Source of the DNA: a virus
Taxonomy: Duplodnaviria > Caudoviricetes
Length of the DNA stretch: 58,749 nucleotides
Virus record (IMG/VR): IMGVR_UViG_3300037487_001109
Span: 1-58,749 of that record
Strand: one strand, 5' to 3'
Of this stretch, positions 25,776-29,938 are shown piece after piece. A program made the position numbers and the translations under genes. The notes beneath the pieces were generated by a model, which had not been told where the DNA came from, ran no database searches, and saw only the letters and a program-made list of their open reading frames with translations. Every line of letters begins with the position of its first letter. The first letter of the stretch is position 1.

Positions 25776-25816
25776 TTGACATTCATAATGTTTCATTCTA
25801 ATCTTTTAGAATGAAA
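25776..25816 (+). promoter_or_regulatory. Sigma70 promoter overlapped by an 11-bp inverted repeat (operator-like)
   Basis: TTGACA-17-TAATCT; tttcattctaa-tctt-ttagaatgaaa. Confidence 0.7.
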
Positions 25817-25978
25817 AAATTAATAATACTTCCAATCCTTCTTTTTATTAACACCAATGCTTATGCATGGGGCAATTGCGCAGGCGTAATGAAGCCTCTT
25901 TGCATGTGGCCTATGGAAGCTTATTGCGTAGGGGCAGGGCCAGTGCAGCAAGATTATTATATTTGTATGGAGAGGTAA
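25811..25978 (+). CDS. 55-aa secreted Cys-rich peptide
   Basis: MKKLIILPILLFINTNAYA/WGNCAGVMKPLCMWPMEAYCVGAGPVQQDYYICMER; Sec signal with A-x-A site, 4 Cys. Confidence 0.65.
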   Translation: MKKLIILPILLFINTNAYAWGNCAGVMKPLCMWPMEAYCVGAGPVQQDYYICMER

Positions 25979-25979
25979 G

Positions 25980-26291
25980 ATGACGGACATTAAGGATACC
26001 CTTAAAGAGAGGGGCAAATCGTATGCTGAGTTTGAGTTTCAAGCCACCATATCCCAGCAACTAAAGAATGTACTACGTGCCTAAGAGAAGTGGGAGCACC
26101 TTGCAGATGACCAGAAAGAAGCACTTGAAATGGTTGTCCACAAGATTGCCAGAATCCTTAACGGAGACGTTAACTTCAGGGACAGTTGGTATGATCAACT
26201 TGGCTACCTGCAGTTAGTGGTAAACCGAATGGATAGAGATGCTGATCTTCTAAAAGAAGATATAAAGATTACAGACGACATACCCTTCTAA
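25980..26291 (+). pseudogene. DUF6378-like gene interrupted by one in-frame TAA (26082-26084)
   Basis: TLKERGKSY...RA*EKW...EALEMVVHKIARILNGD...DSWYDQLGY; GAGG RBS; stop coupled to the helicase ATG. Confidence 0.75.
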
Positions 26292-28495
26292 TGGAAAAGC
26301 TAATCTACCCACAAGACTGCACCCTCCTGCCCTTTCAAGCAGACTGCATACACAAGATGTTAGCATTCTTGCGGAATGGCGGAGGGTGCTACAATGCCTG
26401 TGAAATGGGGCTCGGGAAGAGTGTGCAGGCTATTGTGGCTATGAATACTATTCTCAGGTACGAGCTCTTACCTAAAATATTGATAGTATGCCCGGCAGTA
26501 ATGAGGCTGGTGTGGAGAGCAGAGTTACAAAAATGGCTTACGTCTCTACATCCAAGCGTACAAGTTCTAACATCTAGTAAACAGCTTAAACAAAAATCAA
26601 TGTGGCATGCTGTAACTATTATCTCATATGACTTAGCTGCAACTGATGAGTTTAAAAAATGGGCTGAACCATCATATGATATGCTTATCATGGATGAAGC
26701 GCATTACTGCGTTGCGGAAGACACACTAATAAACACTCCAGCAGGATTGGTGCCTATAAAAAGTCTAGTAGAGGGGGATATAGTTACAACAATTTCAGAT
26801 AATGGGGCTGACACTGGGCGCATTATACGCAAAATTAAAGGTAATGAAAAAGAGCCCAAAAGAAAAATTACCCTCAGTAACGGCTATACGCTTGAAGGGC
26901 TTGACTGGCACCTTGTTAGAACGCCTTTACAGTGGACCGAACTTGGAAAACTACAAGTATCCGATCCAGTGTCCGTGGTGCAAAAAGGTTTGGGACGCAC
27001 GCTACCCATCATGGGTAATGTGGAGAACTTTCTGCAGCGGCAGATGTGCAAAGCTAAACCATTGTCACAACGGTGGGTGGTCAGATCATATGCGAAAAAA
27101 GAACCCTATGAAGATTCCTGCGGCAAGAATGAAGATGCGGGCCACACTGAAACGTATAGGACACAAACCTCCACTACAGGGCGGGAACGGCAAGAAAGCA
27201 CCATTGGCACAGGTAAAATTAAAGCAATTATGCAAATTGGTATTTCCGCAGTATCAGGTAGTGTTAGAGTATGCAGTTGGGCTAGGATGCAAGCAGCCCG
27301 GATTTCCTACAGCGTACAAACTAGATGTGGGTATACCAGAATTAAAACTAGGGGTAGAGGCAGACGGGTATTCTCATCAAAGCCTAGTCAGGAAACAACA
27401 AGATTTGAAGAAAGACAAGAAATTGAAACAGCTAGGGTGGAGAATATTGAGATTTACGAACACGGAGATACTGGAGAAGCCGGCAAATGTTATTACGACC
27501 TTGAGCTCGATAGACACCACAACTATATAGCTAACGGTATTATAGTACATAATTGTAAGTCCCCCAAAGCTAAGCGTACCAAAGCTATCCTAAAACACAT
27601 CTGGCCTAGAGCAGTATTTAAAATCTGCCTCTCCGGCACACCCTTCACTAATAACGTCATAGATGGTTACACATTATTTAATAAACTCGCCCCATATGAC
27701 TTTCCTGATTTCTGGTCATTTGCTAACACCTATTCACATAGAAAGAACAACGGGTTTGGTATTACGTGGGAAGGGTTAAAGAATGCTGATAAACTACGTG
27801 CTATAATTAATAATAATTTCTTTTTACGTAAGACAAAAGCACAGGTGCTCCCAGAACTCCCGCCCAAAGTCTACCAGAAAATAACGCTTGATGAGTCCTA
27901 TGCACACAAACTCACTAAAGAGCAGGAAGCTGAATACGAGAGATACTACCAGGACCTGAAACGCCTGCTTGCCGGTAAAGAAACTACACGCATCCCGCCT
28001 CCTCCAGTATCCATTATGACAGTGCGTAGGGAGCAGGGGTTAAAAAAAGTTAAGCCTATTATCGAATTTGTTAAAAATATGCTTGAACAAAATGTCCCTG
28101 TTGTGCTATTTGGAATTTTCAGGGATGTGCTTACTGAATTTGAAGAGACTTTTAAATCCTATAAACCAGCAGTTATTCACGGCGACGTATCAGCAAAAAA
28201 AAGGCAAGAAGAAATTGAAAGATTTCAAGCCGGAGACACTGATTTATTTATTGGACAGCTTACAGCCGCAGGAGTTGGAATTACTCTCACTAGAGCTTCG
28301 GATGTTGTACTGGCGGAATTGTCCTATAGCCCTGCGGAGATATCACAAGCCGTGGACAGAACGCATAGAATATCTCAGAAAAACTCTGTCACCGTCCACT
28401 ACTTCGCGGTCGAAAACTCGGTTGACGAAAAAATAATTGATATTGTTATGGATAAAGCAAAGATATTTTCAGAGATTTTAAAAGAGGAGAAGTGA
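26291..28495 (+). CDS. SNF2-family helicase containing an intein
   Basis: EMGLGKS, DEAH, LSGTP, GVGITLT, QAVDRTHRI. Confidence 0.92.
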   Translation: MEKLIYPQDCTLLPFQADCIHKMLAFLRNGGGCYNACEMGLGKSVQAIVAMNTILRYELLPKILIVCPAVMRLVWRAELQKWLTSLHPSVQVLTSSKQLKQKSMWHAVTIISYDLAATDEFKKWAEPSYDMLIMDEAHYCVAEDTLINTPAGLVPIKSLVEGDIVTTISDNGADTGRIIRKIKGNEKEPKRKITLSNGYTLEGLDWHLVRTPLQWTELGKLQVSDPVSVVQKGLGRTLPIMGNVENFLQRQMCKAKPLSQRWVVRSYAKKEPYEDSCGKNEDAGHTETYRTQTSTTGRERQESTIGTGKIKAIMQIGISAVSGSVRVCSWARMQAARISYSVQTRCGYTRIKTRGRGRRVFSSKPSQETTRFEERQEIETARVENIEIYEHGDTGEAGKCYYDLELDRHHNYIANGIIVHNCKSPKAKRTKAILKHIWPRAVFKICLSGTPFTNNVIDGYTLFNKLAPYDFPDFWSFANTYSHRKNNGFGITWEGLKNADKLRAIINNNFFLRKTKAQVLPELPPKVYQKITLDESYAHKLTKEQEAEYERYYQDLKRLLAGKETTRIPPPPVSIMTVRREQGLKKVKPIIEFVKNMLEQNVPVVLFGIFRDVLTEFEETFKSYKPAVIHGDVSAKKRQEEIERFQAGDTDLFIGQLTAAGVGITLTRASDVVLAELSYSPAEISQAVDRTHRISQKNSVTVHYFAVENSVDEKIIDIVMDKAKIFSEILKEEK
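26708..27553 (+). mobile_element. Intein (282 aa) in helicase motif II
   Basis: DEAHY|CVAEDTLINTP...YYDLELDRHHNYIANGIIVHN|CKSPKAKRT. Confidence 0.92.
26802..27530 (+). CDS. DUF559/Vsr-like PD-(D/E)xK endonuclease with Zn finger, nested in the +1 frame of the intein
   Basis: CPWC...FCSGRC; NPMK; YKLDVGIPELKLGVEADGYSH...QQDLKKDKKLKQLGWRILRFTN; true start uncertain. Confidence 0.82.
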   Translation: MGLTLGALYAKLKVMKKSPKEKLPSVTAIRLKGLTGTLLERLYSGPNLENYKYPIQCPWCKKVWDARYPSWVMWRTFCSGRCAKLNHCHNGGWSDHMRKKNPMKIPAARMKMRATLKRIGHKPPLQGGNGKKAPLAQVKLKQLCKLVFPQYQVVLEYAVGLGCKQPGFPTAYKLDVGIPELKLGVEADGYSHQSLVRKQQDLKKDKKLKQLGWRILRFTNTEILEKPANVITTLSSIDTTTI

Positions 28496-28725
28496 CTATG
28501 GGCACCGCATGCAACGTCTCAGAATGTGCTAGGCTCTTTGAGAAGAAACTTAAAGATCGGTTAAATGTTTTAGCTAAAGACGCAACTGATGTCTTTGTAG
28601 AAGAGTTAAAAGAGATGTTGATGGGTAACGCTATGGAGTTTGCTAGCGGTATTACATTTGAATATGAATCACAGATAACTCATAGCGATGTACATTTAGT
28701 TTTAAGGTTTCCAAATGACAAATAA
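28492..28725 (+). CDS. Hypothetical protein
   Basis: Coupled to the helicase, GAGGAG RBS. Confidence 0.55.
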   Translation: MTMGTACNVSECARLFEKKLKDRLNVLAKDATDVFVEELKEMLMGNAMEFASGITFEYESQITHSDVHLVLRFPNDK

Positions 28726-29938
28726 TAAAGAATTGAATCACAAAGAAAGAGCCCACGCCCCATTTGGTGGCTCAGTAGCAGCACGCAGGATTAACTGTAC
28801 CGGCAGTTACTTCCTGGAGTCCCAGCTCCCCCCACAGCCAGCTTCCGCTGCAGCTGACGAAGGCACTGAAGCACATGAATGTGTGGAGTGGGCACTTGCA
28901 GATTTCCTCTATCGCAAAATCGAAGGTGAGGGTATAGATTTAGTAAAGCCAGTACACTTTAACAAGTACGCGCAGTTCGCGGAGGATTATGTCGACACCG
29001 TATGGACAAAGGCACTTCATAGCTCTATTACAGGAAAGTCGTATGCTATCGAGACGATTGTTACTATTAATGAGTCTCTGGGTATGTACGGGCCTTGTGA
29101 TTTTGCTTGCGTTTACTCAGACGAGCGAGGCCGTAGTTGTGCTATTGTTATCGACTATAAACATGGCTACAACTTTGTTCCTGTTGAAAAAAACGACCAG
29201 CTTGCACATTATGCTTGCGGATTACGCGAAGATGTACGCAGAGCTGGCAAAGACCTCGAGTACATACGAGCTGCAATTTACCAACCTCGCGCAGGTGGTG
29301 AAACATATAGAGAGGTTACTTTCACCGCAAAGTTTCTGGACAGCTGGAAAAAGCGTGCAATCAAAGCCGCCGAACAAATTTTCGTTAGTAAAAAAGCGAA
29401 GTTCAAGTGCGGAGAATGGTGTAAATTCTGCAGAGCCAAGCCAGTCTGTAAAGCGTATGCTAAGCAACGAACGATAGAGACCCAGCTTAACCTCGTTGAC
29501 CACGCTACAATTGAACTGCCAAAAGTTGATATGCTCTCCCCAGAGCACATAGTTAAACTGGTGCTGCATGGGGATAAGCTTATAGACCTTGTTGAAACTG
29601 CAAAGAAGATAGCCTTTGATGGCTGTGCGGCCAACGGCGAGTTTCACGGTTTAAAACTCGTTGAGGGTCGTGGTAAACGTGGCTGGGATAAGGGCCAAGA
29701 TGAAGACGAGATTGCCACCCAGATGAAGCAGCACGGTATCAAGACCCCCTATAAAGAATCTCTCCGTGGTATTACGGAAATTGAAAAGGAGCTTAAAAAG
29801 TTAAAGCCTGAAGCACAGGCCAAAGAGCTCATGGACTGCTGGACTACAAAGTCAGTCCCCAAAATTCTAGTTGATTCGACTGACCCGAGACCGGCTGTTG
29901 CCTGTGCTAAGGATATGCTTGAAGCAATTGGAGATTAA
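28715..29938 (+). CDS. Cas4-like PD-(D/E)xK nuclease (DUF2800 family)
   Basis: HAPFGGS..RRINC, EGTEAHE, GPCDF, IDYKHG, QLAHYA, WCKFCRAKPVC. Confidence 0.85.
   Translation: MTNNKELNHKERAHAPFGGSVAARRINCTGSYFLESQLPPQPASAAADEGTEAHECVEWALADFLYRKIEGEGIDLVKPVHFNKYAQFAEDYVDTVWTKALHSSITGKSYAIETIVTINESLGMYGPCDFACVYSDERGRSCAIVIDYKHGYNFVPVEKNDQLAHYACGLREDVRRAGKDLEYIRAAIYQPRAGGETYREVTFTAKFLDSWKKRAIKAAEQIFVSKKAKFKCGEWCKFCRAKPVCKAYAKQRTIETQLNLVDHATIELPKVDMLSPEHIVKLVLHGDKLIDLVETAKKIAFDGCAANGEFHGLKLVEGRGKRGWDKGQDEDEIATQMKQHGIKTPYKESLRGITEIEKELKKLKPEAQAKELMDCWTTKSVPKILVDSTDPRPAVACAKDMLEAIGD

Follow-up and report, generated by a model that had tools for sequence, protein, structure and literature searches.

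The stretch of DNA analysed here (hereafter the window) is IMG/VR virus record IMGVR_UViG_3300037487_001109 (Duplodnaviria; Caudoviricetes; 58,749 bp), in which a gene for an SNF2-family helicase carries an in-frame intein, inserted after ATPase motif II. The same DNA, read one base later, very probably encodes a selected and separately expressed homing endonuclease lying inside a functional intein. About 730 bp of dual-coding DNA, with the nuclease made separately from the helicase-intein precursor, had been proposed in an earlier reading of the sequence alone (the original prediction), and this was supported by the conserved nesting of the two frames, a switch in the frame under selection, avoidance of stop codons and opposite fold predictions for the two products. 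The features concerned, with the basis for each in brackets, were as follows (ORF, open reading frame; aa, amino acids; pLDDT, predicted local distance difference test; TM, template modelling score):

26291..28495, + strand: SNF2-family helicase ORF (ORF call, Pfam, 275 homologues)
26291..26707, + strand: N-extein, ending in motif II, ...MDEAHY (ORF reading, comparison with homologues)
26708..27553, + strand: class-1 intein of 282 aa, from C1 (CVAEDT...) to ...IVHN (Intein_splicing, Hint_2 and intein_Cterm; precisely the insert absent from the 452-aa allele P0152)
26708..26983, + strand: Hint N-terminal lobe, intein aa 1-92, with the block B His at aa 68 (pLDDT 93-98, wobble in the helicase frame, H68 invariant)
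26984..27421, + strand: helicase-frame linker, aa 93-238, open yet unconserved as protein and overwritten by the nuclease in the +1 frame (pLDDT 42-55, no strands; stop avoidance)
27422..27553, + strand: Hint C-terminal lobe, blocks F/G, ...YYDLELDRHHNYIANGIIVHN, the first ~106 nt of which double as the nuclease C-terminus (pLDDT at least 95, low variability)
27554..28495, + strand: C-extein, beginning with the +1 nucleophile Cys (TGT, 27554-27556), where the intein-free allele has Leu (comparison with homologues and contigs)
26802..27530, + strand: nuclease ORF in the +1 frame, 242 aa counted from the first ATG, stop TAG at 27528-27530 (ORF, Pfam, relatives, predicted fold)
26970..27047, + strand: predicted zinc ribbon, C57, C60, C78 and C82 (invariant in 6 of 6 sequences, at least 90% conserved in 80; weak matches to MYM zinc-finger, E 0.044, and YacG)
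27102..27191, + strand: conserved helical middle region, NPM ... GHKPxxxGGNG (G128 and G130 invariant; pLDDT at least 95 except in a loop)
27312..27506, + strand: DUF559/Vsr-like nuclease core, aa 171-235, with YKxD, ExDGxSH, D201, K204 and GWxxxRFxN (PF04480 E 1.2e-10; 3hrl E 3e-8; 3hrl and 3r3p TM 0.70-0.71; 1vsr)

An intein in the helicase frame

The helicase reading frame was uninterrupted from 26291 to 28495 and encoded a precursor of 734 aa, or 452 aa once spliced. Profile matches included SNF2-rel_dom (E 5.7e-25) and Helicase_C (E 2e-15) in addition to Intein_splicing and Hint_2, and a protein database search returned 275 homologues at E<=1e-30. The intein junctions read MDEAHY|CVAEDT and IVHN|CKS. 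When searched in isolation (26708-27553), the intein scored 38.9 bits against Intein_splicing PF14890 (cut-off 35.8), 28.7 bits against Hint_2 PF13403 (cut-off 28.4) and 33.7 bits against the NCBIfam model TIGR01443 intein_Cterm (cut-off 15.6). Residue 1 was a Cys (TGC, 26708-26710), invariant in all 47 aligned inteins, and the C-terminal His-Asn was followed by Cys (IVHN|C). His68 of block B was also invariant across the 47 inteins, the Thr of this motif being replaced by Leu (LDWH) in the window and in a related locus, L086. The intact motifs, and the presence of the intein in a conserved phage helicase gene, suggest that it is probably competent for splicing.

In a structural model of the helicase-frame intein, based on 47 relatives, two beta-rich lobes (aa 1-92 and 239-282) were predicted with pLDDT values of 93-98 and at least 95, respectively, and the approximately 145 residues between them were predicted without strands at values of 42-55. 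No nuclease family was detected by profile search in the helicase frame of the intein. The original prediction of an intein open for 282 aa, with C1 and ...VHN|C, was confirmed by the ORF, by the reading of the junctions and by the Intein_splicing score, and its description of the intein middle as off-frame-like and lacking a recognisable nuclease agreed with both the profile search and the low pLDDT.

A zinc-ribbon and DUF559/Vsr-like nuclease in the +1 frame

With both frames searched, a match to Pfam DUF559 (PF04480) was found in the +1 frame only (aa 172-233, E 1.2e-10, 41.7 bits, cut-off 20.6). The relatives in L086 and in Vibrio phage CP-T1 scored 44 and 45 bits, respectively, and the NCBIfam matches of the nuclease (DUF559, Vsr and YacG) were all below threshold. 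The ORF, this score and the motifs CPWC, CSGRC, NPMK, EADGYSH and GWRILRF confirmed the original claim that 26802-27530 is open in the +1 frame and encodes zinc ligands, an NPMK segment and a DUF559/Vsr-like core. Alignment of six nuclease sequences gave 38 invariant columns (CxxC...CSxxC, NPM, GHxPxxxGGNG, YKxD, ExDGxSH and D..(K/R)(D/E)..L...GW...RFxN), and all residues invariant in an alignment of 80 sequences were kept in the window (G128, G130, E186, G189, H192, D201, L208, G212 and N220). D175, E186, D188, H192 and D201 were invariant or at least 90% conserved; the acidic and His residues would correspond to D51, H69 and D97, given as the Vsr active-site residues in PMC3239194. Profile search gave no helix-turn-helix (HTH) or NUMOD match in the nuclease, its N-terminal module being the CxxC...CxxxC zinc ribbon.

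Averaged over the nuclease, the pLDDT of the AlphaFold2 model built from the 80-sequence alignment was 82; aa 50-242 were mostly at 94-98 and aa 1-45 below 50, and the model comprised a small beta zinc ribbon, helices and an alpha/beta core. In order of Foldseek rank, the matching structures were the DUF559 protein 3hrl (TM 0.70), the catalytic domain of I-Bth0305I (3r3p, TM 0.71), Vsr (1vsr/1cw0) and TnsA; no PDB structure matched the model at E<=1e-3, the best rows still being Vsr-fold proteins. In profile comparisons the closest solved relative was again 3hrl (E 3e-8).

A HMMER search of 1.84 billion representatives returned 2173 relatives of the nuclease at E<=1e-3, and the best 150 of these spanned 129-496 aa, none reaching the length of the helicase. 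In the longest, P0080 (496 aa), a helicase N-extein and Hint N-lobe were read in frame into the nuclease, where the protein ended; the alternatives for its origin are a frameshift of one base and a natural fusion of the N-terminal fragment and the nuclease.

Conservation of the +1 nesting

A search of IMG/VR with the six-sequence nuclease alignment gave 301 relatives, of which the best 80 were analysed; with a single-protein query, viral contigs had given 16 pattern matches, none of them confirmed. In 78 of these 80 loci the nuclease lay at +1 under a long frame of the same strand (489-1773 codons), and neither +2 nesting nor an in-frame nuclease was found in any. The two exceptions were a free-standing gene and a fractured helicase. 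The former (L065:3297-3977) encoded a nuclease homologue of 227 aa that no host ORF overlapped, and an ORF of 608 codons followed just downstream; this gene may represent the free-standing ancestral state. In the latter (L071:194-2452) the helicase frame ended after the Hint N-lobe (814) and reopened at 1334, ahead of the C-lobe, with the nuclease ORF (699-1469) spanning the gap; the locus is a pseudogene or else a naturally split intein of the type described by Dassa et al. An antisense frame of 245-392 codons was also open over the nuclease in 6 of the 80 loci (L006, L007, L026, L066, L069 and L078).

The same arrangement was found in L086, the sole locus recovered by the metagenome scan, and outside metagenomes. 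The +1 protein matched 40 records of GenBank phages by tblastn, in 39 cases under an annotated gene (helicase or another name), and GenBank phages had no blastn match to the helicase gene itself. Five of these phages were inspected (Vibrio CP-T1, K391 and 159E43-1b, Pseudomonas MR14 and Corynebacterium phi673), and in all five the +1 frame was open for 215-263 codons inside a helicase intein (DE|CF..., ...VHN|CHH), with the helicase coding sequence as the only annotation over the nuclease match. Genome contigs of bacteria and archaea yielded 35 matching loci. The seven long matches, one of them from the isolate Ktedonobacter racemifer DSM 44963, were all nested at +1 in helicase inteins ending ...VHN|CH(H/M), and the five short-core matches that were checked were DUF559 genes of the ordinary kind, with no long host ORF. 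In 74 of 79 rows a canonical (H/S)N|C/S junction could be identified, usually 4-18 codons past the nuclease stop, so that the 3' end of the nuclease overlaps splicing blocks F/G.

Selection on the two frames

When the window nuclease ORF was permuted by synonymous codons (n=2000), the helicase frame acquired a mean of 8.3 stop codons, and not one of the 2000 sequences was free of them; the real sequence had no stop in the helicase frame over the nuclease and 31 in the third frame. The mean expected number of helicase-frame stops over 77 loci, picked for an open helicase frame, was 9.0.

In a nuclease-frame alignment of 65 unique ORFs, with codons threaded on the protein and five loci with a misplaced or missed junction excluded (L013, L043, L049, L021 and L067, of which L021 and L067 had intact nuclease ORFs of 205 and 184 aa), nucleotide entropies at nuclease codon positions 1, 2 and 3 were 1.20, 1.08 and 1.60, respectively. 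For amino acids, the nuclease frame had an entropy of 1.95, as against 2.67 for the helicase frame and 2.65 for the third frame. Because such an alignment favours the nuclease frame, the count was redone on 47 inteins aligned by intein protein, which biases it against a claim for the nuclease frame. Entropies at helicase codon positions 1/2/3 were then:

Hint N-lobe: 1.33/1.12/1.83, highest at position 3
Intein middle: 1.66/1.21/1.15, highest at position 1 (position 3 of the nuclease)
Stretch shared by the nuclease C-terminus and the Hint C-lobe: 1.36/0.97/0.96, highest at helicase position 1; doubly coding, with all positions least variable
Eight codons past the nuclease stop: 0.64/0.46/1.66, highest at helicase position 3

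The selected frame thus changes within the intein, from helicase to nuclease, and changes back after the nuclease stop, the two switches coinciding exactly with the beginning and end of the nuclease gene. The codon-position entropies indicate purifying selection on the nuclease frame and relaxed selection on the helicase frame that it overlaps. The helicase-frame middle was similar among relatives at E<1e-3 in 21 of 78 loci, compared with 76 of 78 for the nuclease frame; this residual similarity is expected as a by-product of the conserved nucleotides.

Intein-free alleles and mobility

The best 120 of the 275 helicase homologues, the window's own protein included, were examined for the intein. 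The closest of them, P0152, had 452 aa (734 - 282), was free of the intein and was 95.7% and 93.3% identical in the N- and C-exteins, respectively; DEAHY|LKS stands at its site, in place of DEAHY|[intein]|CKS in the window. The next listed relatives (C-exteins 82%, 74% and 63% identical) were also intein-free, and only 4 of the 119 other homologues had an intein at the motif-II site (P0177, P0235, P0247 and P0258, exteins 40-49% identical). L086 has its insertion at the same position; it was 30% (N) and 25% (C) identical to the window in the exteins, 63% in the Hint lobes and 55% in the +1 nuclease.

Contigs of four public runs (X1-X4) were compared with the window over 26200-28600. Those of X1, which may be the window's source, matched without any difference. 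Contigs of X2, from another study, covered 26506-27128 and 27154-27583 with one substitution (26964 A>G, altering a residue in both frames) and no indel. A contig of X4 joined 26685 to 27556, skipping the intein, with a flank that differed at 46 of 425 positions, and the 24 letters that replaced the skipped segment translate to ICDEAHY, followed by two letters that begin a Leu codon. The natural intein-free site is therefore DEAHY|LKS in both P0152 and the X4 contig, and not DEAHY/CKS as the original prediction had assumed. A second X4 contig crossed the extein-intein junction (26626-26776) and was identical to the window. Empty and occupied alleles that circulate together, and an intein more similar than its host gene, are the signature of a homing element.

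The 22 extein bases at 26686-26707 differed at many positions between the window and the intein-free X4 contig, and the encoded protein was nearly the same (IMDEAHY and ICDEAHY, respectively). These bases may be a co-conversion tract, or may be changes that shield the occupied allele from its own nuclease. Contigs of X2, X3 and X4 also matched a 41-base segment of the nuclease (27150-27190, GHKP...GGNG) with 6 differences and unrelated sequence on both sides; the same sediment metagenomes seem to harbour a further nuclease of this family.

A different intein was seen in a related SNF2 helicase, P0246, at the Walker A motif (EMG|C...VVHN|CGKS), with a middle resembling an in-frame HNH domain (HHHDHN...N...H); one helicase family therefore hosts both canonical in-frame and overprinted intein endonucleases, at two ATPase motifs. 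Matches of the helicase (tblastn) in Thermus MN1, Ralstonia RpY1, Rhodothermus RM378 and MT836465 started at query residues 392-411, within the intein C-lobe, so these phages may also bear motif-II inteins.

Translation of the nuclease and alternative explanations

The +1 frame is open from 26784, well within the Hint N-lobe, and three candidate starts were considered for the nuclease:

26802..26804, + strand: ATG, first start codon of the +1 ORF, within an 18-nt block identical in L086; no Shine-Dalgarno motif upstream
26844..26846, + strand: ATG, codon 15, present in L086 too; AAGG just 2 nt upstream
26943..26945, + strand: TTG, 9 codons ahead of the zinc ribbon, where the confidently predicted fold begins; GGA 6 nt upstream

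Among 68 unique ORFs of the family, 59 had an ATG upstream of the first CxxC, at a distance of at most 13 codons in 49 of these. In several, GAGG or AGGAG stood at Shine-Dalgarno distance (GAGG in CP-T1/L011, L018, L031, L036, L080 and L006); these motifs came from the Hint D(D/E)EVL codons, often just past a +1 stop, and are a raw, uncontrolled observation. The ATGs and Shine-Dalgarno-like motifs of the relatives favour independent initiation, and internal initiation appears to be the likeliest route to the nuclease.

The following scheme would account for these data. A mobile class-1 intein would have invaded the phage SNF2 helicase gene at motif II (DEAHY|LKS). Ribosomes would read the helicase through the intein, the Hint lobes (aa 1-92 and 239-282) would fold around an unstructured linker of ~145 aa, and the intein would splice itself out, leaving DEAHY-C-KS. 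One base later, the same DNA would constitute a separate homing endonuclease gene of ~195-242 aa, with an N-terminal zinc ribbon, a helical middle and a C-terminal DUF559/Vsr-like core, most likely initiated independently within the helicase mRNA, which would uncouple the dosage of the nuclease from that of the helicase. Intein-free helicase alleles in co-infecting relatives would be the substrate of the nuclease, whose cut would be repaired by copying in the intein and the nuclease together. The start codon, the translation route, the splicing activity, and the activity and target of the nuclease are what we infer in this scheme.

Several observations weigh against this reading. Neither ATG 26802 nor ATG 26844 is preceded by a well-spaced Shine-Dalgarno motif, which leaves the start in the window ambiguous, and the window has ATC where relatives, including L086, have an ATG 2 codons ahead of the zinc ribbon. 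The absence of such motifs is weak evidence, because many genes of the window phage lack them. The first 45 aa of the nuclease are predicted to be disordered, and in this stretch of ~45 residues the helicase frame is the better conserved (~63%, compared with ~45%, read by eye, for the nuclease frame). The motifs in the relatives carry the limit given above, the loci of the stop-avoidance test were chosen by their open helicase frame, and the count of 78 in 80 rests on the best 80 of 301 relatives. Foldseek E-values for the nuclease were modest (3.6e-3 to 3.8e-2), the match of the homing enzyme I-Bth0305I (3r3p) to the nuclease family profile was non-significant (E = 1), and the Leu in place of the block B Thr (LDWH) bears on a splicing competence that is itself deduced from motifs.

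A programmed ribosomal frameshift from the helicase frame, giving a product of N-extein, Hint N-lobe and nuclease ending at TAG 27528, would explain why no convincing Shine-Dalgarno motif precedes the window's ATGs, and it fits both the opening of the +1 ORF well inside the N-lobe and the existence of P0080, which is precisely such a fusion in one frame. We consider it unlikely. In many relatives the opening of the +1 frame is separated from the zinc ribbon by just 3-12 codons, and an ATG and a Shine-Dalgarno-like motif stand right there, so that a shift site could hardly be accommodated; moreover, P0080 is a single case among the 150 best relatives listed, and the fractured L071 shows that broken forms occur as mutants or fractured genes. 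For the window, the possibilities of an in-frame fusion, of +2 nesting and of a split intein were rejected on the evidence of its ORFs, the frames of the 80 loci and the lengths of the relatives. Intein homing nucleases are usually in-frame LAGLIDADG or HNH domains, and this a priori expectation is all that favours an artefact of assembly or sequencing in which two compensating indels mask an in-frame endonuclease domain, a scenario raised in the original prediction, together with the point that the perfectly matching X1 contigs may be the window's own source. The X2 contigs, from a different study and free of indels, show that this scenario does not hold. The same +1 offset recurs in 5/5 isolate phages, 78/80 viral contigs, 7/7 bacterial contigs and L086, no fused protein of helicase length occurs among the best 150 nuclease relatives, and neither the avoidance of stops nor the switch of frame can be understood unless both frames are read; an artefact can be practically discounted.

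The nuclease ORF could instead be a relic, left open after fixation of the intein through its youth or through constraint on the helicase frame. Decay after fixation is predicted by the homing-cycle model as set out in 10.64898/2026.09.14.751524, and the window nuclease lacks the proximal ATG of its relatives. This explanation is improbable, however, given an ORF intact across 242 codons, the retention of every residue invariant in the 80-sequence alignment and an intein-free target allele in the same kind of sample, which means that homing still has a substrate; the 31 stops in the third frame also indicate that openness does not come free. A selected and separately expressed nuclease within a functional intein therefore remains the best explanation.

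Flanking features of the window

The window has a GC content of 43.8%, is the sole contig of its assembly and is of phage type in its gene content. The stop of a preceding 53-codon ORF (26130-26294) is overlapped by the helicase ATG (TAATG), and no Shine-Dalgarno motif was found there; the overlap and the missing motif suggest translational coupling. A scan for promoters and terminators over 25800-28800 gave 12 promoter-like sites, compared with 6.8 +/- 3.0 expected, none of them persuasive.

Implications

Fully nested genes on the same strand go unreported by gene callers. The endonuclease of this intein family is consequently left unannotated, and its inteins resemble mini-inteins with a long meaningless middle; such unannotated overprinted endonucleases bias tests of the homing-cycle model. 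The family supports the idea that splicing elements are invaded by free-standing endonucleases, and it constitutes a large natural data set of ~600-730 nt of same-strand overprinting, with a clean switch of selection, that should help in studying how two proteins share a sequence. Practical interest may lie in a compact enzyme with a zinc ribbon and Vsr fold, whose predicted target is a conserved ATPase motif, and in an intein that, according to its model, would naturally tolerate a disordered insert of ~145 residues. It is a clear and well-populated example of a recently recognised architecture and introduces no new principle.

More tentatively, it is possible that a single old and very large lineage (301 viral relatives, 2173 proteins) permanently interlocks a Hint intein and a zinc-ribbon/Vsr-like nuclease, with the ribosome-binding site placed in Hint codons and ~100 nt shared with blocks F/G, and that this is the dominant form of phage helicase intein, missed by gene callers and undescribed as such. 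If so, the interlock would keep intein and endonuclease from separating or decaying independently, and initiation of the nuclease could vary inversely with ribosome traffic on the helicase message.

Comparison with known systems

An out-of-frame intein endonuclease was reportedly first proposed by Gorbalenya in 1998. The expectation of the original prediction that similar architectures are known in inteins was correct, layouts of this kind being described in preprints of 2025 and 2026. The general layout is therefore already known, and it is the same-strand, +1, Vsr-like form in helicases that is apparently undescribed: no description of a same-strand +1 zinc-ribbon/DUF559 endonuclease in helicase motif-II inteins was found in the full-text literature, a search that did not extend to the supplementary tables of preprints.

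A survey of non-canonical inteins of actinobacteriophages (10.1101/2025.01.02.630785) reports antisense LAGLIDADG, antisense Vsr-like and frame-3 endonuclease VII-like overprints, hosted by DNA polymerase, minor capsid, terminase and thymidylate synthase genes, and Gosselin, Arsenault & Gogarten propose there an origin through invasion by free-standing endonucleases. As in the window, the splicing domain is in the host frame, an endonuclease ORF lies over an intein middle that has no recognisable structure when read in that frame, and Vsr-like nucleases are represented; in contrast to those described, the nuclease here is on the same strand, at +1, in helicase motif II, and occurs in phages of Vibrio, Pseudomonas and Corynebacterium and in many uncultured phages. 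The cyanobacterial dnaX intein (Phillips, DeSimone & Gogarten, 10.64898/2026.09.14.751524) has a same-strand out-of-frame LAGLIDADG endonuclease at +2. It shares with the window a low-confidence host-frame middle, purifying selection on the endonuclease frame and a relaxed host frame, and differs in that its endonuclease is a LAGLIDADG enzyme in a cellular gene, whereas a zinc-ribbon and DUF559/Vsr-like enzyme at +1 in phage helicases is found here.

Out-of-frame endonucleases over insertions also occur outside confirmed inteins. In the hidden HNH insertions of the ShiLan type in phage methylases (Arsenault et al. 2025, PMC11855218), the endonuclease likewise overlies an insertion that is open in the host frame; that element has an HNH nuclease and lacks a splicing domain, whereas canonical Hint lobes flank the overprint in the window. 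In APSE-1, GenBank annotates P46 ('HNH endonuclease') on the same strand, at +1 and nested in the DNA polymerase P45, an arrangement like that of the window; Pfam at E<=0.01 found no intein in P45 and no HNH in P46, which leaves it unconfirmed as an intein case.

Vsr-like homing endonucleases beside split inteins were described by Dassa et al. in 2009 (PMC2677866), and I-Bth0305I, a member of the 'EDxHD' family, was characterised by Taylor et al. in 2011 (PMC3239194). In these systems, a Vsr-fold nuclease with an N-terminal DNA-binding part and a C-terminal nuclease accompanies phage inteins, and the 3' end of the endonuclease overlaps the region coding for the C-terminal intein, as in the window. 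The N-terminal module here is a zinc ribbon and not NUMOD/HTH. L071 is a fractured member of the window's own nuclease family, and the only broken one of the 80 relatives. In the fractured genes (PMC2677866), the host is split into two ORFs and the overlap is only 6-69 bp, whereas the window keeps an unbroken host frame and its nuclease is overprinted in full.

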